From NCBI GenBank assembly GCA_020050435.1, contig JAGVKQ010000020.1, positions 140,012-204,011 of the forward strand: a stretch of 64,000 nucleotides of DNA. The letters are read 5' to 3'. Position numbers and translations under genes: made by a program. Positions 153 through 14,542 of this stretch are shown here, in pieces. Each line of letters opens with the position of its first letter. Position 1 is the first letter of the stretch. The stretch comes from Candidatus Caenarcanales bacterium (GTDB lineage: Bacteria > Cyanobacteriota > Vampirovibrionia > 2-02-FULL-35-15). Under the pieces are notes generated by a model. That model was not told the DNA's origin. It searched no databases and saw nothing but the letters and a program-made list of their open reading frames with translations.

Positions 153-1874
153 ATGTCCTTTTCAACAGACAAAATTAAAATTGAAAGAATTAAAACAGAT
201 TTTTTAATCATTGGAGCAGGAGCTGCTGGTTGTTTTGCAGCATATGAAGCTAGAAAGCTAAATCCAGATATTGATATAGTAATTTTAGAAAAAGCACACA
301 TAGACAGAAGCGGATGCTTAGCCGCTGGTATTAATGCCATAAATGCTTATATAAATGCAGGACAAAGCCCTGAAAGTTTTTTAGAGTATGTAAAAAAAGA
401 TTCTATGGATTTAATTAGAGAAGATTTGGTTTACAGCATAGCTAAAGAAGTTAACCATGCAGTAGATCTTTTAGAAGAATGGGGATTGCCTATACCTAAA
501 GATGAAAATGGTGAAAGATATGCACGTGGACGTGGATCTATTATAGTTCAGGGTGAAAGAATAAAACCAATCATTGCTCAAGCTGTAAAAAGTACAAAAG
601 CAAAAGTTTTAAATAGAGTAGTAGTTACAAACCTGATTAAAAAAGGAAATAAAATTCTTGGTGCTTATGGTTTTGGAGTTAGAGATGGAAAGTTTTATAT
701 AGTAGAAGCTAAAGCTACTCTTGTTGCTACTGGTGGAGCAGGTGGTATTTACAAACCTAACAATGAAGGTAATGCCAGACATAAAATTTGGTACTCACCA
801 TTTAATACTGGAGCTGGCTATGCTATCGGAATAAGAGCCGGTGCTGAAATGACGACTTTTGAAATGCGCTATGTAAGTATGCGTATAAAAGATCTCATGG
901 CACCTACAGGAGCAGTCGCTCAGGGTGTAAAAGCTCAGCAAGTAAACGCTCTAGGTGAAAGATATCTAGAAGATCGTTATGGAGATTTAGGTGGGCGACA
1001 AATGCCGACATCTGCTCGTTTGTTAGCAACTCTTCAGGAAAATGCAGAGGGAAGAGGTCCATGCTATTTAGATACCACTCATCTTACGAAAGAACAAGCT
1101 GAAAGATTAAAAGCATATTACCTCCACATGACACCTGGACTTACTCTTTATTGGTCAGTAAAATCTACCAGCCCGAAAAATGACCCTCCAGAAATAGTAG
1201 GAACTGAGCCTTACATCGTAGGTGGTCATGCACAGGCTGGTTATTGGATAGATATAAATAGAAAAGCTACTCTTGAAAACTTATATGCAGCAGGAGATGT
1301 AGCAGGCGGCGCTCCTAAAAAATATGTTTCAGGCTCAGGTGTAGAAGGAATGATTGCAGCAAGAGATATAAACTCAAAATTAGGTTCTTTAAATCATGAA
1401 GAGATAAATGATCATGAAATTAAAGAAGAAATGCACAGGGTTTTTAATCACATGAATAAAGAAAGTATTTCGATTTTACCGGATGAGTTAGAACTAAGAA
1501 TGCAAAAAATAATGGATGACTATGCTGGTGGCATTTCTAGTGGCTATGTTTTAAATGAGCAAAAACTTTCAAAAGCAAGAAAATATATCAAACATTTAAA
1601 AGAAGATTCCAAATATTTATATGGAAACAATTTACATGAATTAATGAAATGTCATGAGGTTATAGACAGATTAGATGTAGCCACTGTACTTATAGAACAT
1701 TTAAGCTATAGAAAAGAAACTAGATGGCCTATCTACCAATCAAGAGGCGACTACCCTAATAGAGATGATAAAAACTGGTTGAAGTTTGTTAATTCAGTAT
1801 ATGATAATAAGAGTGGAGAAGTTAAAATTGTAGAGAGGGAATGTAAGCCAGTTTCACTACTTGCAACAAAATAA
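153..1874 (+). CDS. aprA: adenylylsulfate (APS) reductase alpha-subunit-like FAD flavoprotein (AprA family), compact 573 aa
   Basis: N-terminal FAD fold DFLIIGAGAAGCFAAYEA. Blocks REDLVYSIAKEVNHAVDLLEEWGLPIP, NLHELMKCHE and C-terminal RKETRWPIY...DKNWLKFVNSV closely mirror sulfate-reducer AprA as I remember it. About 90 aa shorter than canonical AprA. Confidence 0.75.
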   Translation: MSFSTDKIKIERIKTDFLIIGAGAAGCFAAYEARKLNPDIDIVILEKAHIDRSGCLAAGINAINAYINAGQSPESFLEYVKKDSMDLIREDLVYSIAKEVNHAVDLLEEWGLPIPKDENGERYARGRGSIIVQGERIKPIIAQAVKSTKAKVLNRVVVTNLIKKGNKILGAYGFGVRDGKFYIVEAKATLVATGGAGGIYKPNNEGNARHKIWYSPFNTGAGYAIGIRAGAEMTTFEMRYVSMRIKDLMAPTGAVAQGVKAQQVNALGERYLEDRYGDLGGRQMPTSARLLATLQENAEGRGPCYLDTTHLTKEQAERLKAYYLHMTPGLTLYWSVKSTSPKNDPPEIVGTEPYIVGGHAQAGYWIDINRKATLENLYAAGDVAGGAPKKYVSGSGVEGMIAARDINSKLGSLNHEEINDHEIKEEMHRVFNHMNKESISILPDELELRMQKIMDDYAGGISSGYVLNEQKLSKARKYIKHLKEDSKYLYGNNLHELMKCHEVIDRLDVATVLIEHLSYRKETRWPIYQSRGDYPNRDDKNWLKFVNSVYDNKSGEVKIVERECKPVSLLATK

Positions 1875-1875
1875 A

Positions 1876-2298
1876 ATGGGCATATTAATCGATCAAAATT
1901 CATGCAATGGCTGTGGTTTCCCAGAAAGCGAAACTCCATGCAATATGGCATGTCCAGGCGATCTTATTTTTATGCAATCAAATGGAAAAGCAGAAATCTG
2001 TTGTAATGCTGACTGTTGGGATTGTTGTGCCTGCATAAAAATCTGCCCTCAACAGGCTATAGAACTTCAACTTCCTTTTGAAATAACAGGAAAAGAAGGC
2101 AGCTTAAAAGCCAGAGCTTATAGAGAAAAAACGGTCTGGACTGCAAGAGATGCAAATGGAAATGAAGAAATTTTTGAAACGCCAGCTAGAAATGAGTCCT
2201 CATTAAAGAATTTAATTAATCCAGAAGAATTTAGTGATGTAGTAGATTCATACAAGGGGATTTCTAAATCTTTTACAGATTTAGGTCAAGGAATTTAA
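1876..2298 (+). CDS. aprB: APS reductase beta-subunit-like iron-sulfur protein (AprB family)
   Basis: Two ferredoxin-like Cys clusters, CNGCGFPESETPCNMACPGD and CWDCCACIKICPQQAI, matching the AprB pattern CxxC..CxxxCP / CWxCxxCxxxCP. The track ORF begins at TTG 1861; the likelier start is ATG 1876, one nt after the aprA stop (taaaATG coupling). Confidence 0.7.
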   Translation: MGILIDQNSCNGCGFPESETPCNMACPGDLIFMQSNGKAEICCNADCWDCCACIKICPQQAIELQLPFEITGKEGSLKARAYREKTVWTARDANGNEEIFETPARNESSLKNLINPEEFSDVVDSYKGISKSFTDLGQGI

Positions 2299-2299
2299 G

Positions 2300-2836
2300 A
2301 TGTACAATCATTTAGAAGCAGCGGAACTTGCAAATTCTTTTTACTATACATTTAATACAATCCCCCAAGTAGTTACTACAATGATTGGATTATTAGGGGC
2401 ATTTAGCTTATTTAATATTCAACTACTTGATACTGAGCTTTTTAATACTGCAAATGTACTATTTACATACTACATGGAGTCAAACCTAAAATTGCCTTCA
2501 CCGACTTTATTAGAAACTAAGAATTTCACAGAGTTTTTAAGTTATATAAAGAGTCACCCAAAGCCTACAAATATTCATTTCGAGCCTAGGTTTGAAAGGT
2601 TTGAAATTTTACTAAGCAGAAAAATCAAGCTTGTGAAAGATTTGAAATATTCCCTTTTATTAACTTCTGTAATAGTAATTATTTCGATTATTTTTTTAAT
2701 GCTTACTCCAGATCTAACCAGATTAGAAACTACAGTTAATTGGATTGATTCGGCATGCTTTGGAGTAGGAATTGTTGGAGTTATGTTTTGTCTTAGAAGT
2801 TATTACATGCTTATTATTAATTCTCTGGATAAATAG
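2300..2836 (+). CDS. small integral membrane protein (about 3 TM), translationally coupled to aprB
   Basis: Starts 2 nt after the aprB stop. Hydrophobic helices MIGLLGAFSLFNI, LLLTSVIVIISIIFLMLT, ACFGVGIVGVMFCL. No recognisable family. Confidence 0.5.
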   Translation: MYNHLEAAELANSFYYTFNTIPQVVTTMIGLLGAFSLFNIQLLDTELFNTANVLFTYYMESNLKLPSPTLLETKNFTEFLSYIKSHPKPTNIHFEPRFERFEILLSRKIKLVKDLKYSLLLTSVIVIISIIFLMLTPDLTRLETTVNWIDSACFGVGIVGVMFCLRSYYMLIINSLDK

Positions 2837-2907
2837 GTAAATCGTAACATTTCACCTCGTAATACACCAATTTCATTTAATTAATAGCTAATCTAAATTT
2901 GTGCTTT

Positions 2908-3930
2908 ATGCTTAATAGAAATAAAATCTTTTTTTTCATATTAGTAGTATTTTTAAATTTACTTTTATGCCTGAAATCAAATGCCCATCATGGTGGGGAA
3001 GGAATTAGTGGTGTAGGTGTAGCAGGACCTATAATTACTATTCCTGCTTATACTCTGCCCAAAGGATTAAAATATATAAATCTTCTTACTGATTACACTA
3101 ACTATAATGAGTTTTCAGACAATAAATTAATGCAATTAGATAGAAGAGGTGAGCACATCCATAGCGCCGCACATCTTTTTATACCCAGTGTAGGATTAGG
3201 ATATGGATTAACTGATAACTTAACCATAGGGGTTAGAGTTCCTTATATTTTTAGATTTGGGTTAAGAGACATTCATGATGCAAAAGTAGGAAAAAGAGGA
3301 AATTCAATAGGCATAGGCGATATAACTTTTTTCTCTCAATATAGATTTTTAAAGAATGAAAAACATCATCTCCACGCGGCTCTTTTAACAGGGTTGAAAA
3401 TACCATCAGGAGTAAGAAGAGCAAAAGGAAGAGATGATGAAATTTTTGAAGCAGATGAACAACCAGGCTCCGGTTCATGGGATCCGTTAGTAGGTATTGC
3501 AATTAGCAAGAAAATAAAAGGATTTTCTTTAGATGCTAATGGCTTATATAAATTCACGACTAAAGGTGCACAGGGATCTAATCTTGGAGATCTTGTAAAT
3601 TATAATCTTGCATTGTCACACAGATTTTTAAGAGATCATGATTTAAGTTTTAGTAAAAAAAATGTTAACTCAAGATTCACCAATAAACTTTATGGTGATG
3701 CTATCTTTGAAATTAATGGCTCATGGTCAGCCAAACCAAATACATTTCATGGATTTATAGATCAGAATCACGGCGGGAATTTAGTTTATCTATCGCCTGG
3801 AGTAAGACTCACTTATGATAAGAAATGGATTTGGTATGCTTCATGTGGCTTTCCTACCATTGAAAACCTTAACGGCAGGGCAAAAGCCCCTAGCTTTAGG
3901 CTAGTTTCAGGAATTACGCGGGCTTTTTAA
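2908..3930 (+). CDS. putative outer-membrane beta-barrel protein, paralog 1 (signal peptide, HHGGEG motif, C-terminal Phe)
   Basis: Sec signal peptide then AHHGGEGISGVGVAGPIITIPAYTLPKG. Alternating beta-strand-like pattern. Ends ...ITRAF (C-terminal aromatic typical of OMPs). ATG 2908 is the likely start; the track begins at TTG 2899. Confidence 0.5.
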   Translation: MLNRNKIFFFILVVFLNLLLCLKSNAHHGGEGISGVGVAGPIITIPAYTLPKGLKYINLLTDYTNYNEFSDNKLMQLDRRGEHIHSAAHLFIPSVGLGYGLTDNLTIGVRVPYIFRFGLRDIHDAKVGKRGNSIGIGDITFFSQYRFLKNEKHHLHAALLTGLKIPSGVRRAKGRDDEIFEADEQPGSGSWDPLVGIAISKKIKGFSLDANGLYKFTTKGAQGSNLGDLVNYNLALSHRFLRDHDLSFSKKNVNSRFTNKLYGDAIFEINGSWSAKPNTFHGFIDQNHGGNLVYLSPGVRLTYDKKWIWYASCGFPTIENLNGRAKAPSFRLVSGITRAF

Positions 3931-3985: not shown

Positions 3986-4999
3986 ATGCTTTTTCAATTC
4001 ATATTCTCTTTAATAATTGCTTTTTTTATTTCAACTAATTCTTCTTTAGCTCACCATGGCGGAGAAGGTGGACTAGGTGGCGGTGCTGGAATAGCTGGAC
4101 CCATAGTAACTATACCTGCTTACCCATTACCAAAAGGAAGTAAGTTTATAAGCTTAATTACAAATTACAATAACGAAAACATTTTCTCAGATTCCAAATT
4201 AAGCCGCCTTGGCAAAAGAGGAGAAGAAGTAGATATAGTAGAAAATACACTTACCCCTTCATTAACAGTAGGATATGGTTTTACTGAAAAGTCTTCATTA
4301 AGTGCAAGTATTCCTTATCTCTTTAAATTTGGAATAAGAAGAGTAGAAGAGTCACCCGTAGTAACAAATAAAGGAAATTCAATCGGTGTAGGAGATATAA
4401 ATTTATTTGGCTTATATGAGTTGGTTCATAGTGAAAAGCATGATTTACATACAGCCCTTTTATATGGTCTAAAAATACCTACTGGAGTTAGAAGAACAAA
4501 AGACCATTCAGGAAATATATATAAAGCAGAGCATCAACCCAGTACAGGTTCTTGGGACCCTTCTTTAGGACTTTCCGTAAGTAAGCATGCAGGGATTTTA
4601 CATTTAGATGCAAATGGCATGTATAGATTTTCGACTAAAGGTATTCAAGATACTACCTTAGGAGATATAGTTTCATACAACTTAGCTACATCCTATTTAG
4701 TTGGAACTAAAAATACCAGATTTGATAAACTCTTTCCTAAAAAAATATTTGGTCATGAAAGTAGTTGGCATTTAATCGGAGAAATAAATGGCTCCTGGGT
4801 AGAAAAACCTAAAAGTCCAGAAGGCAGAGAAGAAAATGAAGGTGGAACGCTTGTCTATCTTTCCCCTGGAATGAGATTGATACTGGATAAGAAATGGGTT
4901 ACAAACCTATCAGTAGGTCTTCCTACTATTCATAATTTAAATGGTAGAAGGCAACCGCCAAATGTCAGAGTTATTTTAGGCGTTACGAGAGTATTTTAG
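3986..4999 (+). CDS. putative outer-membrane beta-barrel protein, paralog 2
   Basis: Signal peptide then AHHGGEGGLGGGAGIAGPIVTIPAYPLPKG. Collinear similarity to the 2908-3930 protein along the whole length. Ends ...VTRVF. Confidence 0.5.
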   Translation: MLFQFIFSLIIAFFISTNSSLAHHGGEGGLGGGAGIAGPIVTIPAYPLPKGSKFISLITNYNNENIFSDSKLSRLGKRGEEVDIVENTLTPSLTVGYGFTEKSSLSASIPYLFKFGIRRVEESPVVTNKGNSIGVGDINLFGLYELVHSEKHDLHTALLYGLKIPTGVRRTKDHSGNIYKAEHQPSTGSWDPSLGLSVSKHAGILHLDANGMYRFSTKGIQDTTLGDIVSYNLATSYLVGTKNTRFDKLFPKKIFGHESSWHLIGEINGSWVEKPKSPEGREENEGGTLVYLSPGMRLILDKKWVTNLSVGLPTIHNLNGRRQPPNVRVILGVTRVF

Positions 5000-5154: not shown

Positions 5155-5559
5155 TTATGATTTCACTTCTGGAGCTGGTAAAGCATCTAAGTCTTTTTCA
5201 AAATGATTTAATTTATCTATCAAAGTTCCATAGTCACATTTTGCTAACCAATATCCACGTACTTTTTCTTTAGGTACTGTTTTTTTAATGTTTGGTGGAC
5301 GTGTGCCGAGTAGTCTTTCCTGACACCATTTGTTTCCTTCTCTATAGTGACAGTCACCTATCTGACAACCCATTACAAAAACACCTTCAGCACCTTGTTT
5401 GAATGCTTCCTCTATCATGATGGGCTGAATCATACCTGAACATGTAACTTCTAAAATTGAAACATTATCTTTTTCTACAAGCTTGTTATTTTTAACCCTT
5501 TTCTTAAGGTCTACACTTCTTTCACAAACAATTCCTAATATTTTCTTTTTTTTGCTCAT
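5155..5559 (-). CDS. MvhD/FlpD-like protein (methyl-viologen-reducing hydrogenase delta-subunit domain)
   Basis: VTCSGMIQP ... FVMGCQIGDCHYREGNKWCQ, the conserved Cys pattern of the MvhD/FlpD domain that accompanies HdrA/QmoB-type electron-transfer modules. Confidence 0.6.
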   Translation of the reverse strand: MSKKKKILGIVCERSVDLKKRVKNNKLVEKDNVSILEVTCSGMIQPIMIEEAFKQGAEGVFVMGCQIGDCHYREGNKWCQERLLGTRPPNIKKTVPKEKVRGYWLAKCDYGTLIDKLNHFEKDLDALPAPEVKS

Positions 5560-5569
5560 GATTTATTCC

Positions 5570-6694
5570 TTATGCAGGCTCCTTGAGAAGATCACTAATT
5601 TTAGTTATAACTTCTTTTGAATGATTTTGTGGAAGATCAATCGCTTTAAATGCACACGCTCCTACACAAAGTCCACACTCCGAACATCTGGCATCTATAA
5701 CTACTGCAAGCTGTTTATACTTAGGATGATCAGTTCTAGGTACCATGTAAATAGCTTCATAAGGACAATCTTTAGCACATAATGTACAACCAACACAATT
5801 GGTTAAACTAACAACAGCTGGTGCTTTTTCTTTATCAGTAACTAAAAATGGAAGAGCAAATAATAATGTAGTGGCTATAAAAACTATTGTCCAGACTATT
5901 AATGCAGGCATACCTGAGAACATAGGGAATATCCATAAATAGAACCAATCTAAAGGAAACTGAGTAGGCAATTTAGTAAGCACTGCTGGATTTACACTAG
6001 CTACTGGATAAACTGAAGCTGGAATCATTATGGATGAAAGAAGCAACAATCCTAGTCCAAGAGGTACGTCTGTAACCGGTCTTGAGATTCTTAAATAATG
6101 TAACCATAAGAGAAATAAGAGTGAAAATGAGATTCCAATATGGAAGAAAAAAGACATTGCTAAAGTATAGTGAGAAATAACATCACCATTAACAAAAATT
6201 TTAGCTAGTGGTAAACCCAAGAAAGGGATTTGCTTTAAAGCATCAGTCATAGCTAAAACTATCATGTATGATCTTTCATCCCATACAAGAATATATCCAG
6301 TTATACCTATGATTAACATTCCAATTAAAAGTACTACACCTGAATACCATGCAATCCAACGATACTTTCTATATCTGTCAGTGAAATAAACTCTAATAGC
6401 ATGAACCAATACTGCAATCATCATGGCATCAGCAGCATATCTATGTAAACCACGAATAATATTTCCAAATGGAAGTTTTGTAGTAATAAAATTGACTGAA
6501 ATATAAGCACTGTCTAAAGTAGGTTGATAATAAACAAATAAAAGAAGTCCTGTAATAAACAAAGTCCACATGAAAAAGTTTGGAACTGCACCATGATAGT
6601 AAAAAGGATTGTACTGCTGAGTAAAAACTTTATTTAAACCTTTTTCAAAAGTTATGGTGGCTTCTTGTAGTTTTTCTAATGTCTCTTTGTACAT
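5570..6694 (-). CDS. cytochrome b(6)-like membrane domain fused to a C-terminal 2x[4Fe-4S] ferredoxin domain
   Basis: Helix-B pair RGLHRYAADAMMIAVLVHAIRVY (H-x13-H) and helix-D pair HIGISFSLLFLLWLH (H-x13-H), typical of the cytochrome b N-terminal domain. C-terminus CVGCTLCAKDCP ... CSECGLCVGACAF = two CxxCxxCxxxC(P) clusters. Confidence 0.65.
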   Translation of the reverse strand: MYKETLEKLQEATITFEKGLNKVFTQQYNPFYYHGAVPNFFMWTLFITGLLLFVYYQPTLDSAYISVNFITTKLPFGNIIRGLHRYAADAMMIAVLVHAIRVYFTDRYRKYRWIAWYSGVVLLIGMLIIGITGYILVWDERSYMIVLAMTDALKQIPFLGLPLAKIFVNGDVISHYTLAMSFFFHIGISFSLLFLLWLHYLRISRPVTDVPLGLGLLLLSSIMIPASVYPVASVNPAVLTKLPTQFPLDWFYLWIFPMFSGMPALIVWTIVFIATTLLFALPFLVTDKEKAPAVVSLTNCVGCTLCAKDCPYEAIYMVPRTDHPKYKQLAVVIDARCSECGLCVGACAFKAIDLPQNHSKEVITKISDLLKEPA

Positions 6695-6702
6695 AACTCC
6701 TC

Positions 6703-6942
6703 TTACTTTTTAGCCTTTTCTTTAGCAGGGTTAGTTTCTTCATTATCATCATTTTGGGTAAGAATAATAAAAGAAACAGCAGCTAAAATCCCTAAGATTC
6801 CATAATATTTGCCAAATGCTACATCCTGGAAATTCCACTCACTAATACCAAGGAAATAGAGCAAACCTAATGTACCGCCAGCACATAGTAAAGCAACAAT
6901 CATTTGAATAGTATTTTTCATTTTGCTTTTCTCCTTATCCAT
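6703..6942 (-). CDS. small membrane protein (79 aa, 2 TM)
   Basis: Hydrophobic ORF packed between the cyt b genes; overlaps its neighbour by 25 nt. Confidence 0.4.
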   Translation of the reverse strand: MDKEKSKMKNTIQMIVALLCAGGTLGLLYFLGISEWNFQDVAFGKYYGILGILAAVSFIILTQNDDNEETNPAKEKAKK

Positions 6943-7187
6943 TCATAAGGACCAAATTCTTTACCTAAATTGTTTTTTTCTTTTTCTTCAAAGTAAATCC
7001 AATATCCAATAATAAATAGGGATAAAGCAAGTAAGAATAATGAGAAAACAGACATTGGTATATATTTAAATGTTTGATCAGCTGCAATCATTCTGCCTGA
7101 CTCAAAAAACATAGCTAATGCATAAGTAGCTGTACTAAAGACTATTATTCTGGCTATATTTATTTTTTCAATTAAGTTTTTAATCAT
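6918..7187 (-). CDS. small membrane protein (89 aa, 2 TM)
   Basis: Hydrophobic ORF; 4-nt overlap with the cytochrome b stop. Confidence 0.4.
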   Translation of the reverse strand: MIKNLIEKINIARIIVFSTATYALAMFFESGRMIAADQTFKYIPMSVFSLFLLALSLFIIGYWIYFEEKEKNNLGKEFGPYEWIRRKAK

Positions 7188-8509
7188 TGTGCAGGCATCA
7201 CCTCACCGACCATTTTCTTTCTAATTAATAAGTGCCACGTATAAGCAATCACTGTAGGGACCATACAAATACCAGTTCCTATTAACTGATCTTTTATAGT
7301 CAAGAAACCATTTAACAAACTAGGGAATGCCCAAAACATAACAAAAAGCGGACAGATAACATAAGCAATAAAATCCCCAACCATTACAGGCATTTTTTCT
7401 GGCTTTTCTGTTTTTTGTAAAATATACTGCCAGACAACACCAATCGCTATAAGTAGCCATGTACCACCTCTCCATATAGGTGGATCAGTATGAATATTTG
7501 CAATGTTCATTATGATAAGTGCTGAGAAAATAACAAACTCAATAAAGCCCATAATAACTACCATAAAGAAAATGGGTCTTCTAAAAATTTTAGTTTCAGG
7601 TCCTAAATCTAAAAATGGAAGTATAACTACAGTAAGAGGAATAAAAACAGTTAACGCTGTAGCCCAAACAGGTTCAATATATTTCAAGAACTGGTAAAGT
7701 GCAAGGAAATACCAATCTGAAAGAATAGGTAGTGGTGTAACACTAGGATCTGCTCTGTGTCCTATTTGTGCTGGCAATGCAATTGCAGCAAAGATAACCA
7801 TAGCTGTAGGTAATATTGCCATTTTCCAAGGCATGTTAAATCTCTTCAAACCATTTCTATAAAAATATAATTCAACTGCAATTAATGCAAGTAAACTAAA
7901 TGCAATATGAAAGCCATAAAATCTGGTCATGGTAGCTTGACCGATAGAACTACCACCAAGAAGAATCTGAGAGGTGTTTACACCGATGTGTGTAGGTCCA
8001 AGAATATAAAACTGCTCTAAGTATGTAGGAAATGTAGCAAAAACTTTTGTCGCCCAAAATGCTCTCTGATTCCAGATGAGAAGATACCCAGTAAGACCTG
8101 AGTACATTCCAAAAAGAAGTGTTACAAGACCAATAGCTACATTTAATTCTCTATTAGGTTTATAGTCTGCACAAATAAATATTCTATATAGTCTAATCGT
8201 AGCTGCAATAATAACTGCATCAGCACCATACTTATGAACACCTCTCATTAATGCACCAAAAGGAATTACATCCTGGATTTTAACGATAGAGTCATAAGCT
8301 TCACTAATAGAAGGTATATAAATAGCCATGAGTATACAGCCAGTAACCATGGTGATGACCCAAAATAACCATACAAGTGATCCAAGTGTATACCAAGGGT
8401 TTGTTTGAGCTTTATCTGCATAGTGTTCATCAAAAATATCAATGCCATTAATCATGGCTAGAACTTTATCTAGTAATGCTTTTGAAGATTTTTTAACTAT
8501 GTCGATCAT
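7184..8509 (-). CDS. cytochrome b of a Rieske/cyt b (bc-type) complex, long form 441 aa
   Basis: RGVHKYGADAVIIAATIRLYRIF, the cytochrome b helix-B heme-ligand block. Multiple further TM helices including a subunit-IV-like C-terminal part. Confidence 0.75.
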   Translation of the reverse strand: MIDIVKKSSKALLDKVLAMINGIDIFDEHYADKAQTNPWYTLGSLVWLFWVITMVTGCILMAIYIPSISEAYDSIVKIQDVIPFGALMRGVHKYGADAVIIAATIRLYRIFICADYKPNRELNVAIGLVTLLFGMYSGLTGYLLIWNQRAFWATKVFATFPTYLEQFYILGPTHIGVNTSQILLGGSSIGQATMTRFYGFHIAFSLLALIAVELYFYRNGLKRFNMPWKMAILPTAMVIFAAIALPAQIGHRADPSVTPLPILSDWYFLALYQFLKYIEPVWATALTVFIPLTVVILPFLDLGPETKIFRRPIFFMVVIMGFIEFVIFSALIIMNIANIHTDPPIWRGGTWLLIAIGVVWQYILQKTEKPEKMPVMVGDFIAYVICPLFVMFWAFPSLLNGFLTIKDQLIGTGICMVPTVIAYTWHLLIRKKMVGEVMPAQ

Positions 8510-8515
8510 GGTTTT

Positions 8516-9082
8516 TTACGCCACCCCTCCAGATTCAAGATCAGTAATTCTTAGTTTATTATTTTCAACAGTATAAACAAATTTTCTTGGTGGTCTAGGT
8601 GCAGGACCAGAAACAACTTTACCTTCTTGTTGGATATCAAATACACTTAAGTGACATGGACATGCAAAAACTGGACCATCAGGTCTATAGTTATATCCTT
8701 TAGCTACATCATCTGGAGCAGGTACATAGTTAAATACACAACCAAGATGAGGACAGATTCTACTATAAACAGCAAATTCACCAGTCGGTAGCCTTACAGC
8801 ATAACCAGGAATATCTTTAGTCTGAGTACCAATAGCTGTATATTCTTTATTTATCTGGGTAAAAGTAAATGCTTGAGCATCAAAGGCTTTAGGCATAAGT
8901 GAAAGATCTATTTCAACAGGAACTGCAGACCTAGGAAGATCTCCTCCTTGTAAATAATTTAAAGGTTTAATGGTAGGTTTTAAAAATCTCATTAAAGGAG
9001 ATACTGCTGCTGCTAATGCACCTAAAACAGGGATTGCTAATATTCCTTTTAATAAATTACGCCTTGTTGTCTCAATATCCAT
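8516..9082 (-). CDS. Rieske [2Fe-2S] iron-sulfur protein with twin-arginine signal
   Basis: Tat motif TRRNLLKG and membrane anchor. Rieske boxes CPHLGC and CPCHLS. Confidence 0.85.
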   Translation of the reverse strand: MDIETTRRNLLKGILAIPVLGALAAAVSPLMRFLKPTIKPLNYLQGGDLPRSAVPVEIDLSLMPKAFDAQAFTFTQINKEYTAIGTQTKDIPGYAVRLPTGEFAVYSRICPHLGCVFNYVPAPDDVAKGYNYRPDGPVFACPCHLSVFDIQQEGKVVSGPAPRPPRKFVYTVENNKLRITDLESGGVA

Positions 9083-9101
9083 TCCCTACCCCCAAATAAA
9101 A

Positions 9102-9917
9102 TTATTTTTTCTTATAGTCACTTTCATCAGATTGCTTGAAGTATTCATCTTTTCTAAGTACATCAGCTTCAGTACTATATCCAAACTGTCTAACGTACTT
9201 AACTAATTGCCATCTGAACTTATCATCAAATTCATAATGTTTTTGTTTATCTTCTCTTCCTGCCCATGGAGGCATTGCAGTCCATGGAATACCATTAGAG
9301 ATTTCATCAAATATTTTTTCATCTGTTTTTTCATACAATCTATCAAATTGGTTAAAGTTAGCTGGTTTTGGATTTAAATAGTAGTGAATATTTCCATCAG
9401 CAAAGCCTCTAGTACCATGACATACTGCACAATTGGCACCGAACTCTGTTTTCACTTTTTCAAAGTCTTCTGGCAATCCAAAAAGCTCAGACCTAAGATA
9501 CATTACAATATCCCATCTCTCTTTTATACTAAGATTTTCTTTAAATGATGGGTGTTTTGGATTGCTGGTAATTGTTTTAAATAAATGTGATGGAGTAACC
9601 TTGTTTATATAAGAGACAGTAAACTCGTGTTTATTAGGTTCTTTAGTAAAACTGTGACAACTAGCACAATTTGCAGCGTAGAATTTTTTACCTTCTACAA
9701 TGGATGGATCTTTAGTAGGATAAGCAAAATCTTCTCCGGCAGACTTTTCATCTATAAGAGGATTGGAATCAGACGGTAGGGAAACTTTTTTTAATGAGAT
9801 ATTTGACTGACAAGCAGATATAAGAAGTCCTACAACCACGATAGAACAAACCAATGTTATTGTTCTTGCTATTTGTGCTATTTTTTCTTTATCTTTCATT
9901 TTTTTATCAATACCCAA
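9102..9917 (-). CDS. diheme c-type cytochrome, lipoprotein (probable c1-equivalent of the bc-type complex)
   Basis: Signal peptide with lipobox LISAC. Two CxxCH motifs (CASCH, CAVCH). Confidence 0.7.
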   Translation of the reverse strand: MGIDKKMKDKEKIAQIARTITLVCSIVVVGLLISACQSNISLKKVSLPSDSNPLIDEKSAGEDFAYPTKDPSIVEGKKFYAANCASCHSFTKEPNKHEFTVSYINKVTPSHLFKTITSNPKHPSFKENLSIKERWDIVMYLRSELFGLPEDFEKVKTEFGANCAVCHGTRGFADGNIHYYLNPKPANFNQFDRLYEKTDEKIFDEISNGIPWTAMPPWAGREDKQKHYEFDDKFRWQLVKYVRQFGYSTEADVLRKDEYFKQSDESDYKKK

Positions 9918-10074
9918 AGAACGGAACCCAAGAAATTGTTGCCCATAGAAAAACTAAAAAGAATAAGATTATTAAAAATAAAGGTGGCTTATGATCACCC
10001 ATTCTATATTCTTCAGGTTTGGTAACCTGTGGTATTTGGCAAAGCGGCTGAAATTCATGCTTTTCTTCTGACAT
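9907..10074 (-). CDS. small membrane protein (55 aa)
   Basis: Read by eye: MSEEKHEFQPLCQIPQVTKPEEYRMGDHKPPLFLIILFFLVFLWATISWVPFFGY. ATG directly follows the stop of the upstream small ORF (taaATG). SD aggagg upstream. Confidence 0.3.
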   Translation of the reverse strand: MSEEKHEFQPLCQIPQVTKPEEYRMGDHKPPLFLIILFFLVFLWATISWVPFFGY

Positions 10075-10272
10075 TTACACAACCTCCTGAATACCATTTT
10101 CTTCTAGCATTTCATATTTTATATCTTCAAGATTATCTAATTGTCCTGACTTTAATGCCCAAAGAAAAATAACTCCTGCAAATACAAAAAATACTAAACA
10201 CATCCATGCAAACATACCAAGACCAGGCTTGGAAATTAAATCATTTACTACTTGTTCTGCTGTTACTTGCAT
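10075..10272 (-). CDS. small membrane protein, CcoQ/FixQ-like position
   Basis: 65 aa with one TM (GMFAWMCLVFFVFAGVIFLWAL), immediately downstream of ccoO. Confidence 0.35.
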   Translation of the reverse strand: MQVTAEQVVNDLISKPGLGMFAWMCLVFFVFAGVIFLWALKSGQLDNLEDIKYEMLEENGIQEVV

Positions 10273-10323
10273 ATTTTTTATTTTTCTAACCTTGAAACTT
10301 GTATCTTACAACTTGTAACTTGG

Positions 10324-11280
10324 TTAGTGTCCTCCCCCTGCACCAGGTGCTGGTCCATCAGTTTTAATAATCTCTGCTGGTTTTACTGAATTTAATTCAG
10401 CAGCAGAAGTTTTATTTACCTCAACCCATTTTTCTGGATCTATAGATTCATATCCTTTTGGATAAACTTCTGTTTCTCTAGGTAATGTTTTTAAGAAAGC
10501 TACTAAATACCATCTTTGTTCTTCTGTAAGTAATTTACCCCACTGAGGCATTCTAGTTCCAGGCACGCCTTCAGACACTCTCCAGAACCAAGTTACATCA
10601 TCATAATCTTTATAGAATGGTCTGCTAAAGTTAGCTGGTTTTTTAGCTATAGCAATAGCATTTGGTCCATTTCCTAAACCGTTGGTGCCATGACATGTAG
10701 CACAGTTCTGTTGGTAGATTCCACGTCCAGCATTCGCTGCAGCTGAGCCGTCTACATTTACTTTTCTTTTATCTAAAACTTTTCTAAGTTCGTCTGGTTG
10801 ATAGATTCTATGATATTTAACCATTCTCTTTTTACCAAGAGTTTGGATATAAGCAACAAGCTCATTCATCTCATCATCTTTTAAATATCCAAAAGGAGGC
10901 ATGATGGATCCAGGTGTCAATGTTCTAGGATTTTTCAAGTGAGATATATGCCATTGATCAGGATGTTTTTGACCTTCATTAGTAAGATCTGGACCTGTTC
11001 TAATAGTACCTAATACGTTTGGTGTTTCATATACATAGTCACCGGCTTGAGGTAATGGTCCGAAATCTCTATCCTGCGGTCTACTAAATTGACTATGACA
11101 ATAAACACAACCTTCTCTTACATAAATCTTTCTGCCTCTTGCTTCTTTAGGCGTGTACTCCACAGCAAACTCAGAAGCTGTTGGTCTGAAAATAAAATTC
11201 GGAAGTAAAACTGTAGTAAATGTAATTAGTCCAAAAGAGGCTAAAACTACAAATCCTGGAAGTATATAGTTTTTATTCAT
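10324..11280 (-). CDS. ccoO: cbb3-type cytochrome c oxidase subunit II (CcoO) fused to an additional monoheme c domain (CcoP-like)
   Basis: N-terminal TM. GRKIYVREGCVYCHSQFSRP and GTIRTGPDLTNEGQKHPDQWHISHLKNPRTLTPGSIMPPF closely match CcoO. A second CxxCH (CATCHG) lies in a C-terminal extension. Confidence 0.75.
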   Translation of the reverse strand: MNKNYILPGFVVLASFGLITFTTVLLPNFIFRPTASEFAVEYTPKEARGRKIYVREGCVYCHSQFSRPQDRDFGPLPQAGDYVYETPNVLGTIRTGPDLTNEGQKHPDQWHISHLKNPRTLTPGSIMPPFGYLKDDEMNELVAYIQTLGKKRMVKYHRIYQPDELRKVLDKRKVNVDGSAAANAGRGIYQQNCATCHGTNGLGNGPNAIAIAKKPANFSRPFYKDYDDVTWFWRVSEGVPGTRMPQWGKLLTEEQRWYLVAFLKTLPRETEVYPKGYESIDPEKWVEVNKTSAAELNSVKPAEIIKTDGPAPGAGGGH

Positions 11281-11281
11281 G

Positions 11282-12673
11282 CTACACCCTCGCCAATCCC
11301 GGTGGAACCATTGCTGGTTCTACAGTAGGCTCATCTAAGGGTTTTACTCCTCTAACTGTTTGAATAATATTAAATAATAAAAGAATATTTCCAAACCACA
11401 TCATTGCACCACCCAATGCTCTATAAATCCAATAAGGTACAAGCTCAACAACCCACTGACCTACTGGTATACCTAAATGCCAACCAGCAGATTGAACTAA
11501 CCCTGCTATGGTGAAAGCTGCAAAAAATATTAGGAATCCAATAAAAGTAAACCAGTAGTGAGCTCTAGCTAAAGCTACACTATAAATTTGTTTTCCTGTA
11601 ACTCTGGGGAAAATATAATAAATAGCACCCCAATCAAAGAATGAAAAAGTACCAAGAAGTGCTACGTGAGCATGACCTGGAACCCACTGAGTAAAATGAA
11701 TATACCAGTTAACTGATCTAGTTGCTTGAAATGGACCTTGAATACAAGTAACAAAATAAAAAAGTGCACCGGTTAAAACAAATCGAAGCGGTAAATTGTT
11801 AGCTACTTGCCACCAATTCCCCTTCATAGTCATAAAAAAGTTTGTAAGCACTGTAATAACTGGAATCACTAGAGCAACACTAAATACCACTGCAAGTGCT
11901 TTAAGCCACTCTGGCACTGGAGACTGCAAAATATGGTGAGTCCCTGTAGGTGCATAAAAGAATGCTATGGTCCAAAAACCAAGCATCGATAAACTATGAC
12001 TCCAGAGTGGTCTTCCTGAAAGTTTTGGAATCATATAGTATGCAATTCCAACTCCAAGAGTCGTAAACCACATTCCTAATATATTATGTCCATAAAACCA
12101 GTTAACAATTCCATCATTTAAACCATCTAATCTAACAAATGTTCTATTTCCTATAAAGTAAACAATAGGCATCCAAAAGAATGCACCGAGCATATACCAA
12201 AGACTTACGTATAGCTTTTTAACTTTTCTATTTAATACCGTTAAATAGACATTGTATGAAAGCGAAATTAAACCAACAACAACAATAATATCGATTGGTA
12301 CTGGAAACTCTGCATACTCACGGCCTTCTGAATAACCATTTAATAAACAAAGAACACCAGCAAAAATTGCAAAATTCCATACATAACATATGAAGTTAGC
12401 AAATTTTTCACTATAAAGCTTACATCTTGTGAGAGTAGGAATTATATAAAGAACAATTCCTATGTTTGCCATACTTAGCCAGCCAAATGCAACTGCATTG
12501 ATATGAGCAGGTCTGATTCTAGAAAAAGTAAGCTGAGGAATATTTGAACTAAGATCAGGAGCAACGAACTCTATGGCGCCGGTTAAACCAAGTGACATTC
12601 CTACCACAAGCCAAATAACTGCTGTAATTATAAAATTTTTACTTGCTGAGTTCTCTTTATCTGAAAGTATCAT
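11282..12673 (-). CDS. ccoN: cbb3-type cytochrome c oxidase subunit I (CcoN)
   Basis: Twelve-TM heme-copper oxidase fold. WFYGHNILGMWFTTLGVGIAYYMIPK and HAHVALLGTFSF histidine-ligand blocks. 2-nt overlap with ccoO. Confidence 0.8.
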   Translation of the reverse strand: MILSDKENSASKNFIITAVIWLVVGMSLGLTGAIEFVAPDLSSNIPQLTFSRIRPAHINAVAFGWLSMANIGIVLYIIPTLTRCKLYSEKFANFICYVWNFAIFAGVLCLLNGYSEGREYAEFPVPIDIIVVVGLISLSYNVYLTVLNRKVKKLYVSLWYMLGAFFWMPIVYFIGNRTFVRLDGLNDGIVNWFYGHNILGMWFTTLGVGIAYYMIPKLSGRPLWSHSLSMLGFWTIAFFYAPTGTHHILQSPVPEWLKALAVVFSVALVIPVITVLTNFFMTMKGNWWQVANNLPLRFVLTGALFYFVTCIQGPFQATRSVNWYIHFTQWVPGHAHVALLGTFSFFDWGAIYYIFPRVTGKQIYSVALARAHYWFTFIGFLIFFAAFTIAGLVQSAGWHLGIPVGQWVVELVPYWIYRALGGAMMWFGNILLLFNIIQTVRGVKPLDEPTVEPAMVPPGLARV

Positions 12674-13270: not shown

Positions 13271-14542
13271 GTGCTTGTAAAAAAAGGTCTAACTAATATC
13301 ATTGAAGATGAAGATATTTTTGAATATAAAGATTCAGAACATTTATATACAAGCAGTTATTCATTAAAAAACACTTGGAGAAAAGAAGGTTCGGCAAGAA
13401 ATTTTGGTCATCCAATGCACTCTATGGCATCTAGATCAGGTTCATTTCCTCCAGCGCTTGCTGATTATTTTATAAGCAACTTTTCAAGAGTTGGGGATTT
13501 AGTTCTTGATCCATATTCAGGAAAAGGAACAACACCTTTTCAAGCATGCTTATTAGACAGAGTGGGTTTCGGTATAGATGTAGCACCGGAAGCATATGTT
13601 TTAACAGGAGCAAAAGTAAGCTGCATAAATCATGAGGAAGCCATTGATTATTTAAATGCTATCAAGTTTGGAATATCAAACACTAATATAAAAGATGTGC
13701 CACCTGATGTTAAAGTGTTTTTCTCCACTAAAACTCTGGCTCAAATACTAGTAATCAGAGAAAGATTATTAGAAGATTTAGGACTAGAATCAGACAAATT
13801 AGACTATGATAATGGGAAAGTTTTTCATATAGCAAAAACAAGAAGAGAACAATTAGCACAGTACTGGTTAGGGATTTTAACTGGAATATTACACGGCTCA
13901 TCCTCATACAGCCTGAGTCTTCCATGTTCACATTCATTTTCAATGGCTCCAAACTATACAAAAAACTATGCAAAAAAACATGGGTTAAAGAAACCAGACA
14001 GAAATGTAAAAATCTGTATGATTCAAAAATCTTTTTACTTACAAAGTGCAGGAATAGCACGTGTTCAAGGAAAAGCATACTTAGGAAAAGCACAAGAACT
14101 TCCTGATTCATGGGAAGAAAAAATAGATCTAGTGGTAACCTCTCCACCATATTTCACAGCACAAAGCTATGCATGGGACAACTGGCTTCGTGAATGGCTT
14201 TTAGGTTTTGATTTTAAAAATGTAAGAAAACAAACTACACAGACAGCAAGCTATGAAAAATATTCAAATGCTATGTATCTTTTCTTAAAAGAATCACATA
14301 GAGTTTTAAAACCAGGCAAACGTGCTTTCGTAGTAGTAGGTGACGTTACTAAAAAATCTGGTGATGAAAAAATAGTAATCAGAACCAGTGACGTCATAGC
14401 TAATGAAGGTAAAAAAGCAGGGTTTGATGTAGAGCTAATAATAAACGATGACATTCCACCTACTAAAAGATACAATTCATCATTCTTACAAGCAAATCAA
14501 GGTTTGACTATAGATAGAATTGTTTGTTTGAAGAAGAAGTAA
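13271..14542 (+). CDS. DNA methyltransferase, N6-adenine/N4-cytosine type (alpha-class motif order)
   Basis: Motif I DPYSGKGTT near the N-terminus and motif IV SPPY (VVTSPPYFTAQSY) about 210 aa later. GTG start with SD gaggt. Slightly GC-enriched relative to flanks. Confidence 0.75.
   Translation: MLVKKGLTNIIEDEDIFEYKDSEHLYTSSYSLKNTWRKEGSARNFGHPMHSMASRSGSFPPALADYFISNFSRVGDLVLDPYSGKGTTPFQACLLDRVGFGIDVAPEAYVLTGAKVSCINHEEAIDYLNAIKFGISNTNIKDVPPDVKVFFSTKTLAQILVIRERLLEDLGLESDKLDYDNGKVFHIAKTRREQLAQYWLGILTGILHGSSSYSLSLPCSHSFSMAPNYTKNYAKKHGLKKPDRNVKICMIQKSFYLQSAGIARVQGKAYLGKAQELPDSWEEKIDLVVTSPPYFTAQSYAWDNWLREWLLGFDFKNVRKQTTQTASYEKYSNAMYLFLKESHRVLKPGKRAFVVVGDVTKKSGDEKIVIRTSDVIANEGKKAGFDVELIINDDIPPTKRYNSSFLQANQGLTIDRIVCLKKK

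Follow-up and report, generated by a model that had tools for sequence, protein, structure and literature searches.

A probable assimilatory sulfonucleotide reductase of the MtPAPSR family, with PAPS as its most likely substrate, in a putative member of the Melainabacteria

Our analysis of a 64-kb stretch of DNA (the window) from a probably respiring bacterium, which the source names of the nearest alpha and cytochrome b homologs place, most likely, in the Melainabacteria (Vampirovibrionia), assigns the gene pair at 153-2298, with a probability of about 0.7, to an alpha2beta2-type assimilatory sulfonucleotide reductase with FAD and two [4Fe-4S] clusters. In this assignment the enzyme belongs to the family of MtPAPSR, the APS-reductase-like, PAPS-specific PAPS reductase of Methanothermococcus thermolithotrophicus (PDB 8A8O; Jespersen et al. 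2023, PMC10322725), its substrate is most likely PAPS, and the membrane protein encoded directly downstream (ORF3) is separate from it. The features concerned are:

153-1874, + strand: alpha gene, 573 aa; codes for the flavoprotein (FAD) of an APS-reductase-like, MtPAPSR-type assimilatory (P)APS reductase (NF005331)
483-542, + strand: specificity-loop codons, alpha residues 111-130 (GLPIPKDENGERYARGRGSI), equivalent to loop 104-123 of MtPAPSR
537-539, + strand: codon of alpha Ser129, at the position of AfAprA Gln145
1876-2298, + strand: beta gene, 140 aa from ATG (alternative TTG at 1861), with a 2x[4Fe-4S] ferredoxin core, a beta-sheet segment and a clade-specific C-terminal tail (2185-2295)
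2300-2836, + strand: ORF3, 178 aa; three-TM, DUF2721-like membrane protein

The alpha product contains the Pfam domains FAD_binding_2 and Succ_DH_flav_C and passes the NCBIfam model NF005331 (796.7 bits; cut-off 557), while staying below the cut-off of the aprA model TIGR02061 (426.3 vs 641.75 bits). Its best solved relative is 8a8o_A (E 1.7e-208, residues 10-565), to which it is 56% identical over its full length at almost the same size (573 vs 571 aa). The dissimilatory AprBA enzymes of A. fulgidus (1JNR/2FJA) and D. gigas (3GYX) have the same fold family and cofactor set, with 40% identity in alpha (362 bits for 1jnr_A). The alignment to AprA proposed in the preliminary description, aimed at the APS-binding residues and the environment of the FAD N5 adduct, found all of these residues kept. 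The catalytic residues N64, Y79, W213, R244, R289 and H359 (Asn74, Tyr95, Trp234, Arg265, Arg317 and His398 in A. fulgidus) are common to the window enzyme, MtPAPSR and dissimilatory AprA, and are (nearly) invariant among 79 family members. The subunit had been described as about 90 aa short; it is indeed shorter, the measured difference being 70-89 aa relative to the AprA chains of known structure (1jnr_A, 643 aa; 3gyx_A, 662 aa) and spread over many trimmed loops. Since alpha subunits are typically 560-580 aa long across the NF005331-type family, this shortness is a family trait.

For the beta subunit the most likely start is ATG 1876 rather than TTG 1861, because the former lies one base past the stop codon of alpha and the match with the beta chain of 8A8O starts as early as residue 3. 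The best structural match is again MtPAPSR (8a8o_C, E 7.5e-23), followed by 3gyx_B (1.2e-12) and 1jnr_B (9.3e-10), and the aprB model TIGR02060 scores 54.7 bits, below its cut-off of 135.65. All eight cluster cysteines (Cys10/13/22/26 and Cys47/50/53/57) are present in the core, as is the electron-transfer Trp48, which lies within a CWDC motif and is the counterpart of Mt Trp42. In two respects the window beta departs from its MtPAPSR homolog: six extra residues lie between Cys2 and Cys3, as in dissimilatory AprB, and the C terminus is extended by a 37-residue tail (residues 104-140) that the 104-aa Mt subunit lacks. The earlier statement that the long C-terminal tail of AprB is lacking is thus half right: beta subunits of the family are short (median length 107 aa), whereas in the clade of the window beta is 140 aa long and has this tail. 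This tail has no detectable similarity to that of A. fulgidus (the HMMER alignment to 1jnr_B ends at residue 101) and a marginal one to that of D. gigas (the 3gyx_B alignment reaches, weakly, residue 120).

The open reading frame coordinates bear out that the flavoprotein gene precedes the FeS gene on the + strand, the reverse of dissimilatory aprBA. On the other hand, this order, previously regarded as unusual, is the rule among the relatives: beta lies directly 3' of alpha in 157/157 related loci with room downstream (79/79 from genomes, 78/78 from metagenomes), an outcome that the preliminary description itself had named as refuting its view of the gene order. The same alpha-beta order, compact subunits and NCBIfam family are shared by the Asn-type "AprAB" enzymes of Clostridia, Negativicutes and other anaerobes (encoded in sbp-cysTWA / cysDN operons), whose alpha subunits are 45-51% identical to that of the window. 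More than 8000 alpha relatives, annotated as adenylyl-sulfate reductase alpha, are present in the database, and the proposal of a divergent or new Apr lineage is not sustained in view of these relatives and of the curated model that the alpha product passes. Within the NF005331-type family there is nothing unusual in alpha preceding beta, in a short alpha or in a short beta core, and the alpha/beta locus is an ordinary one, another member of a known and very widespread APS-reductase-like assimilatory family. All three ORFs are under purifying selection with respect to their relatives (pN 0.11-0.17, pS 0.61-0.76), so that their features are not due to chance.

By homology to AfAprAB and MtPAPSR, electrons would be taken up by the two beta clusters and relayed by beta Trp48 to the FAD of alpha, whose N5 would attack the sulfur of the bound sulfonucleotide to form an adduct; decay of this adduct would then yield sulfite and the nucleotide. 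The usual setting of the family is an assimilatory sulfate operon, with Sbp-CysT-CysW-CysA encoded upstream, CysD-CysN, Sat or CysC adjacent, and small sulfite reductases and CysK nearby. A tblastn search of the 64-kb window (E <= 1e-3, validated with positive controls) returned no sat, cysD, cysN, cysC, sulfite reductase or cysK genes and no sulfate ABC or DASS transporters, and no sat, cysDN, cysC, sulfite reductase or sulfate transporter genes occur within 10 kb in the clade relatives L001, L086 and L087. The upstream context of alpha was also taken from these relatives, an exact look-up of the window alpha protein having given no record. The pathway context is thus drawn from other lineages only, and the sulfate-activation genes of the host must lie elsewhere in its genome. 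MtPAPSR differs in this respect, as its genes co-occur with those for ATP sulfurylase and APS kinase, neither of which is found in the window neighborhood; it also comes from a methanogen, whereas the host here is a bacterium. Among the genes of the dissimilatory type, no Sat, QmoABC, AprM or Dsr genes were found near the pair, no Qmo or HdrA-type gene adjoins alpha/beta, and Dsr genes are absent from the window. Scans of the window for tRNA and Rfam families gave no matches, and around the locus predicted promoters and terminators were no more numerous than in shuffled sequence.

The specificity loop is the part of alpha that bears on the choice between PAPS and APS. In the study of MtPAPSR (PMC10322725), which reported 0.114 U/mg with PAPS vs 0.007 with APS, specificity was related to loop 104-123, and Gln145 of AfAprA was proposed to clash with the 3'-phosphate of PAPS (the PAPS in the 8A8O structure being modelled, not observed); as for residues binding the 3'-phosphate, the paper, its preprint and its supplements give only this loop and Gln145. 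The window alpha has Ser129 in place of the invariant Gln145 and Arg125 in place of the invariant Glu141 (Af numbering) of the substrate channel in dissimilatory AprA. MtPAPSR likewise has Ser and Arg at these positions, whereas the majority of the family has Asn at the former. Basic residues of the loop are Arg125 and Arg127; Gly128 stands where MtPAPSR has Arg121, giving a motif R-G-S vs K-R-S, so that this Arg, a possible salt-bridge partner of the 3'-phosphate, is missing from the window enzyme. An identical R-G-S motif is found in two relatives (L011 and L021), both encoded beside cysC. In fact, a gene for APS kinase (cysC) lies within 8 kb of 10 of the 16 Ser-type loci and of 1/142 other loci. 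This association was seen in each of two independent locus sets (6/8 vs 1/70, Fisher p 7e-7; 4/8 vs 0/72, Fisher p 4e-5), although it is correlative, its statistics ignore kinship, and 6/16 Ser-type loci have no cysC in the flank. In a neighbor-joining tree the Ser-type loci are spread over three or more branches, and the window alpha groups with Ser types near MtPAPSR. Judging from the sequence, the substrate of the window enzyme is most likely PAPS rather than APS, given Ser129 at the Gln145 position and an R-G-S motif common to relatives encoded beside the APS kinase gene. This agrees with the suggestion in the preliminary description of an enzyme of different specificity, such as another sulfonucleotide reductase, in that the closest characterized relative is the PAPS-specific MtPAPSR.

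The third gene, ORF3, was described earlier as coding for a 178-aa, three-TM protein that starts 2 nt past beta. Its length and its three hydrophobic segments (24-43, 114-143 and 154-174 by hydropathy) are as described; the spacing is one base (TAAgATG), as it is between alpha and beta, with AAGGA about 8 nt upstream. It is a genuine gene and is probably co-transcribed and translationally coupled with beta here. Searches against Pfam, NCBIfam and PADLOC gave no match, and a single weak, PnuC-like PHROGs match (E 9e-4, 19.8 bits) was dismissed as an effect of TM composition. ORF3 has only 6 close homologs; a profile search returned 234 remote ones, which sit in contexts unrelated to sulfur. A weak match to DUF2721 (PF11026, uncharacterized membrane proteins of similar size and TM layout) was seen for 5 of 44 members of the ORF3 family (best E 7.4e-6), and the window ORF3 itself has no significant match to it. 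The AlphaFold model is all-helical, with a mean pLDDT of 68. Synteny varies even within the clade: ORF3 sits 10 nt past beta in L088/L089 and 560 nt from it in L001, is missing in L087, and in L086 its place is taken by a 301-aa soluble ORF, which was considered as an ORF3 relative and rejected as unrelated in sequence. It occurs in 0/160 loci outside the clade. Overall, ORF3 is a lineage-specific passenger, neither a part of the enzyme nor a conserved partner, and the idea of a new membrane anchor or partner is not supported.

Among the alternatives, an assimilatory APS reductase acting directly on APS is the one to be taken most seriously, even if we regard it as unlikely. Asn or Asp occupies the key position in 141 of 158 loci, and these are found beside CysDN without APS kinase, so APS reduction is probably the commonest activity in the family. 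The Asn-type "AprAB" enzymes, which are almost never encoded near cysC, presumably act on APS for this very reason. The lack of cysC near the window locus, the missing equivalent of Mt Arg121 and the database annotation as adenylyl-sulfate reductase would fit the same activity. The window enzyme, however, differs from the Asn type in having Ser129 at the Gln145 position as well as in lying outside a sulfate operon, its R-G-S motif is the one found in L011 and L021, and the tree places it with the Ser types and MtPAPSR, apart from the Asn-type clades. A still more distant possibility, to which we assign a negligible probability, is that the pair is no sulfonucleotide reductase but another flavoprotein of the fumarate reductase superfamily with a ferredoxin partner (a fumarate or thiol:fumarate reductase, or an aspartate oxidase). 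Its Pfam domains are indeed generic, and one relative, in Halobacteroides, carries the source annotation succinate dehydrogenase/fumarate reductase flavoprotein. A check for membership in such a known non-Apr family, suggested in the preliminary description, speaks against it: the fumarate reductase, TfrA and NadB models remain far below their cut-offs (<=306 bits vs 587) while NF005331 passes, every APS-binding and catalytic residue of AprA is kept, and the family is found in sulfate-assimilation operons.

It could also be asked whether the pair forms a membrane-linked, energy-conserving Apr-like system, either with ORF3 as an AprM-like anchor or with a cytochrome b-ferredoxin fusion and an MvhD-like protein as a Qmo-like, quinol-linked donor; this we consider very improbable. 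ORF3 does resemble AprM of some sulfur oxidizers in being a small multi-TM protein that shares a transcription unit with an Apr-like pair, and its coupling to beta in the window, like its proximity to beta in L088/L089, could be read in this sense. In every clade locus seen, moreover, genes for a cytochrome b-2x[4Fe-4S] fusion and an FlpD/MvhD-like protein lie convergent to alpha-beta; such a module of membrane cytochrome b, FeS and MvhD resembles QmoB and QmoC, and in Desulfovirgula a 788-aa protein that combines ferredoxin and MvhD-like segments is encoded after an alpha-beta pair. Yet ORF3 is set apart from AprM and QmoABC by its place after beta (not before the pair), by its patchy conservation in close relatives, by its absence from the 160 loci outside the clade, and by its membership of a DUF2721-like family of unrelated contexts. 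In the distant Melainabacteria L098 and L099 the cytochrome b-ferredoxin and FlpD genes are the conserved 3' end of the cbb3 oxidase-Rieske-cytochrome b operon, with no alpha-beta nearby; we therefore rejected this module as a dedicated donor, its distant homologs staying in the respiratory operon without alpha-beta. The window also has no Sat, Dsr or Qmo genes, and its alpha fails the dissimilatory aprA model. A narrower version, in which the enzyme of this clade, out of the sulfate operon, with its 37-residue beta tail and kept convergent to a cbb3 oxidase / Rieske / cytochrome b operon that has the fusion and the MvhD-like protein at its end, would have acquired a Qmo- or AprM-like membrane link in this module (or in ORF3), strikes us as a long shot; if it were true, quinol-derived electrons would feed sulfonucleotide reduction in an aerobe.

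With the pair read as an assimilatory sulfonucleotide reductase of the MtPAPSR family, the window locus itself is of small importance, as a curated model and a 1.45 A structure exist for the family and its annotated relatives number in the thousands. Members of the family, however, commonly bear the label "adenylyl-sulfate reductase" and enter metagenome surveys as aprA. The analysis shows the NF005331-type family to be a class of assimilatory enzymes with a gene order of its own; such aprA matches should not be counted as evidence of dissimilatory sulfur cycling. As an extension of what Jespersen et al. 2023 (PMC10322725) proposed from the structure, Ser vs Asn at the position of AfAprA Gln145 may serve as a cheap predictor of PAPS vs APS specificity across the family.

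The Apr-like flavoprotein (alpha) and iron-sulfur subunit (beta) genes, together with the gene for a small membrane protein behind them (ORF3), occupy the following positions of the window:

153-1874, plus strand: alpha ORF, 573 aa
1861-2298 (TTG at 1861) or from the ATG at 1876, plus strand: beta ORF, 145 or 140 aa
2300-2836, plus strand: ORF3, 178 aa

The locus encodes an APS-reductase-like assimilatory sulfonucleotide reductase of an already known family, typified by the PAPS reductase of Methanothermococcus thermolithotrophicus (MtPAPSR, PDB 8A8O). Chain A of 8A8O (MtPAPSR alpha) is the best solved match of alpha (E 1.7e-208, full length, 56% identity), with A. fulgidus AprA reaching half the bits of this chain and 40% identity; the best solved match of beta is chain C (E 7.5e-23), followed by D. 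gigas and A. fulgidus AprB. The possibility, raised in the preliminary description as an alternative, that the pair is another sulfonucleotide reductase was the right one. Alpha scores 796.7 bits against NCBIfam NF005331 ("adenylyl-sulfate reductase subunit alpha", cut-off 557) and 426 bits, under the cut-off of 641.75, against the classical aprA equivalog TIGR02061. Pfam recognizes no more than two generic domains in alpha (FAD_binding_2, Succ_DH_flav_C) and, in beta, weak ferredoxin motifs. As identities of alpha, fumarate reductase, TfrA and NadB were rejected, since the corresponding models score far under their cut-offs.

Since an ATG follows the alpha stop (TAA, 1872-1874) after a one-base gap, at 1876, and the alignment with the 8A8O beta chain starts at residue 3 as numbered from this ATG, beta most likely begins there, with 140 aa, and not at the TTG, which would give 145 aa. 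The ATG of ORF3 at 2300 stands one base past the beta stop (2296-2298), with AAGGA ~8 nt upstream, and a terminator scan found no terminator-like sites separating the three genes; promoter and terminator matches around the locus are no commoner than in shuffled sequence. Comparison with relatives shows purifying selection on each of the three genes (pN 0.11-0.17, pS 0.61-0.76). The three-gene arrangement described earlier is real and needs minor correction on three points, the position of the beta start, the spacing and the supposed lack of a long beta tail. In the clade formed by the window locus and its close relatives (L001 and L086-L089), alpha is preceded in L001, L086 and L087 by a divergent ORF of unknown kind and ClpB, and is therefore the first gene of its transcription unit.

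The family is large: a word-indexed search returned at least 8000 relatives of alpha at E <= 1e-50, many of which carry the annotation adenylyl-sulfate reductase subunit alpha. Their sources include Halanaerobiales, Nitrospirota, Hydrothermarchaeales and Actinomycetota, among others; those closest to the window alpha (73-84% identity) are named as Candidatus Melainabacteria. We sampled 80 loci each from species-representative genomes and metagenome contigs, throughout which alpha measures 560-600 aa. The canonical dissimilatory gene order is aprBA, as it also stands in the title of a paper (Meyer and Kuever 2007) that PMC10504309 cites, and the preliminary description correctly contrasted the present locus with it. 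It had also taken the alpha-beta order to be exceptional, which is not supported, as beta lies directly 3' of alpha on the same strand in 79/79 genome and 78/78 metagenome loci with room downstream. Being universal in the family, this order separates two known families and is no mark of novelty here.

Clustering of the neighbors of the 80 genome loci revealed a recurrent operon, Sbp-CysT-CysW-CysA followed by alpha-beta and CysD-CysN, in ~55 loci; instead of it, Sat is found in 8 loci and CysC in 7. AsrC-like or NirA-like sulfite reductases and cysteine synthase also occur near family loci. The context of the family is assimilatory sulfate reduction, in agreement with the treatment of "AprAB" in recent gut-microbiome work (PMC11328384). 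The window itself departs from this picture in that a search with positive controls found no sulfate-activation, sulfite-reduction or sulfate-transport genes in its 64 kb, nor were any found in the 10-kb flanks of the clade relatives L001, L086 and L087.

Two further features of the context were observed. The CysN following alpha-beta-CysD (L044 10920-12623 and ~54 similar Clostridial loci) is ~567 aa long with a ~150-residue C-terminal extension; an APS kinase domain was ruled out, as the bifunctional model aligns over the CysN part only. At two Desulfovirgula loci (L015 10083-12449, and L016), alpha-beta has Asp at the position of A. fulgidus AprA (AfAprA) Gln145, and downstream of the pair comes an ORF of 788 aa that has ferredoxin and MvhD-like segments and may be an HdrA/QmoB-like partner. 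Such pairs, found here in a sulfate reducer, look like a third family subtype.

ORF3 is a genuine three-TM protein by hydropathy and pN/pS, and it had been suggested as a possible new membrane anchor or partner. This is not supported, as the gene is variable in the clade, was found at 0/160 loci outside it, and has remote relatives in non-sulfur contexts. It lies 10 nt 3' of beta in L088 and L089; in L086 (alpha 73% identity) its place is taken by an unrelated soluble 301-aa ORF, and in L087 (78%) no gene follows beta on that strand. In L001, ~560 nt (9439-10000), including an extra 61-aa ORF, separate beta from the ORF3 homologue, compared with a single base in the window, so that the beta/ORF3 junction is polymorphic by insertion or deletion. 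There are only six close homologues (each >= 74% identity). Exhaustive searching with a profile brought up 234 remote relatives, of which 26 reach E <= 1e-10; almost all measure 160-180 aa and match end to end, with a strongly conserved N-terminal motif (YYTFSTIxQxxxGxxxLLGAF); 5/44 family members weakly match Pfam DUF2721. No sulfur genes were seen near these relatives in four sampled contexts; an AAA_15/AAA_21 ATPase gene precedes it in L092. The best reading of ORF3 is a passenger specific to this lineage, from an uncharacterised family of ~170-aa three-TM proteins (P0129-P0277; loci L090-L097) with no more than a faint link to DUF2721. Directly 3' of it, and possibly co-transcribed with it, are two paralogous outer-membrane-type genes (2899-3930 and 3986-4999, plus strand), syntenic within the clade (L001, L088), whose products show weak Pfam Phenol_MetA_deg matches and an HHGGEG motif just past the signal peptide.

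Facing the locus is a respiratory operon:

5155-12673, minus strand: respiratory operon, convergent to the alpha-beta locus
5570-6694, minus strand: second cytochrome b N-domain fused to a 2x[4Fe-4S] ferredoxin domain
5155-5559, minus strand: MvhD/FlpD-like protein

It includes a cbb3-type oxidase (CcoN, FixO), and its order is CcoN, FixO/cytochrome c, cytochrome c, Rieske protein, cytochrome b6-subunit IV fusion, two small TM ORFs, the second cytochrome b fusion and the MvhD/FlpD-like protein, the FeS/MvhD part being an extension of a bc-type complex. This membrane cytochrome b, FeS and MvhD module recalls QmoB/QmoC, the partners of dissimilatory AprAB, and all clade members keep it next to alpha-beta. 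We tested for a link between the two. The fusion has 481 homologues, many named Melainabacteria or Obscuribacterales. The operon is conserved across these groups: two distant loci (L098 and L099) have it in full, with the fusion and FlpD, but without alpha-beta nearby, which assigns the module to the respiratory operon. We find nothing that supports a functional link, and the adjacency is most simply shared synteny.

Just past the oxidase operon lies a gene for an N6/N4 DNA methylase domain protein (13271-14542, plus strand). Further along, in what reads from the translated sequences as a leucine-catabolism-like cluster, a carboxyl transferase gene (PF01039; 49112-50763, minus strand) is split by a frameshift into two ORFs (profile positions 2-263 and 296-482), by either pseudogenization or sequencing error. 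GC content is ~33% throughout, and no tRNA genes or Rfam families reached threshold in window 1-64000.

By alignment, AfAprA Asn74, Tyr95, Trp234, Arg265, Arg317 and His398, which we take to be the residues for catalysis and APS binding from the A. fulgidus structures and from the retention of catalytic residues stated in PMC10322725, align with window N64, Y79, W213, R244, R289 and H359, positions invariant or nearly so among 79 family members. Beta retains eight cluster cysteines (C10, C13, C22, C26, C47, C50, C53, C57) and Trp48, within a CWDC motif, the equivalent of Mt Trp42; a six-residue insertion between its second and third cysteines is shared with dissimilatory AprB and lacking in Mt beta. 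The 37-residue beta C-terminal tail (104-140) is shared by the clade, at 85% identity between the window and L001. Most family members lack it, the median beta length being 107 aa, and it has no similarity to the A. fulgidus AprB tail detectable by alignment.

MtPAPSR itself is an alpha2beta2 enzyme with FAD and 2x[4Fe-4S], an architecture as in dissimilatory APS reductase, and retains the catalytic residues (PMC10322725). Its activity is 0.114 U/mg with PAPS vs 0.007 with APS, and no reverse reaction could be measured; loop 104-123 was named as the main site of the change in specificity, and AfAprA Gln145, an invariant residue, as one that would clash with the 3'-phosphate (PMC10322725). At this position the window enzyme has Ser129, as Mt has Ser122; Arg125, at the AfAprA Glu141 position, is invariant in the family.

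Family members differ in this residue and in their linkage to cysC, the APS kinase gene. In the genome set, cysC lies within 8 kb in 6/8 loci with Ser vs 1/70 with Asn or Asp (Fisher p = 7e-7), and in the independent metagenome set in 4/8 with Ser vs 0/72 with Asn or Ala (p = 4e-5), giving 10/16 vs 1/142 over both (L006-L085, L100-L179), in tests that treat loci as independent of phylogeny. An NJ tree, which has no support values, places the cysC-linked Ser types on three or more branches and puts the window and L001 among Ser types, beside the branch holding MtPAPSR. From this correlation we infer that Ser marks PAPS-type and Asn APS-type enzymes. The last three positions of the window loop motif, A-R-G-R-G-S, are identical to those of two cysC-linked loci (L011, L021), whereas Gly128, where Mt has Arg121, weakens a PAPS-type reading. 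On these sequence grounds the window enzyme is probably PAPS-type and PAPS-specific.

The enzyme is of modest interest for its occurrence in a respiring Melainabacteria-like lineage, outside any sulfate operon, and for its clade-specific beta tail. The position of residue 129 (window 537-539), Ser vs Asn, is a candidate sequence marker of PAPS vs APS specificity, which looks usable for a family widely mis-read as dissimilatory aprA.
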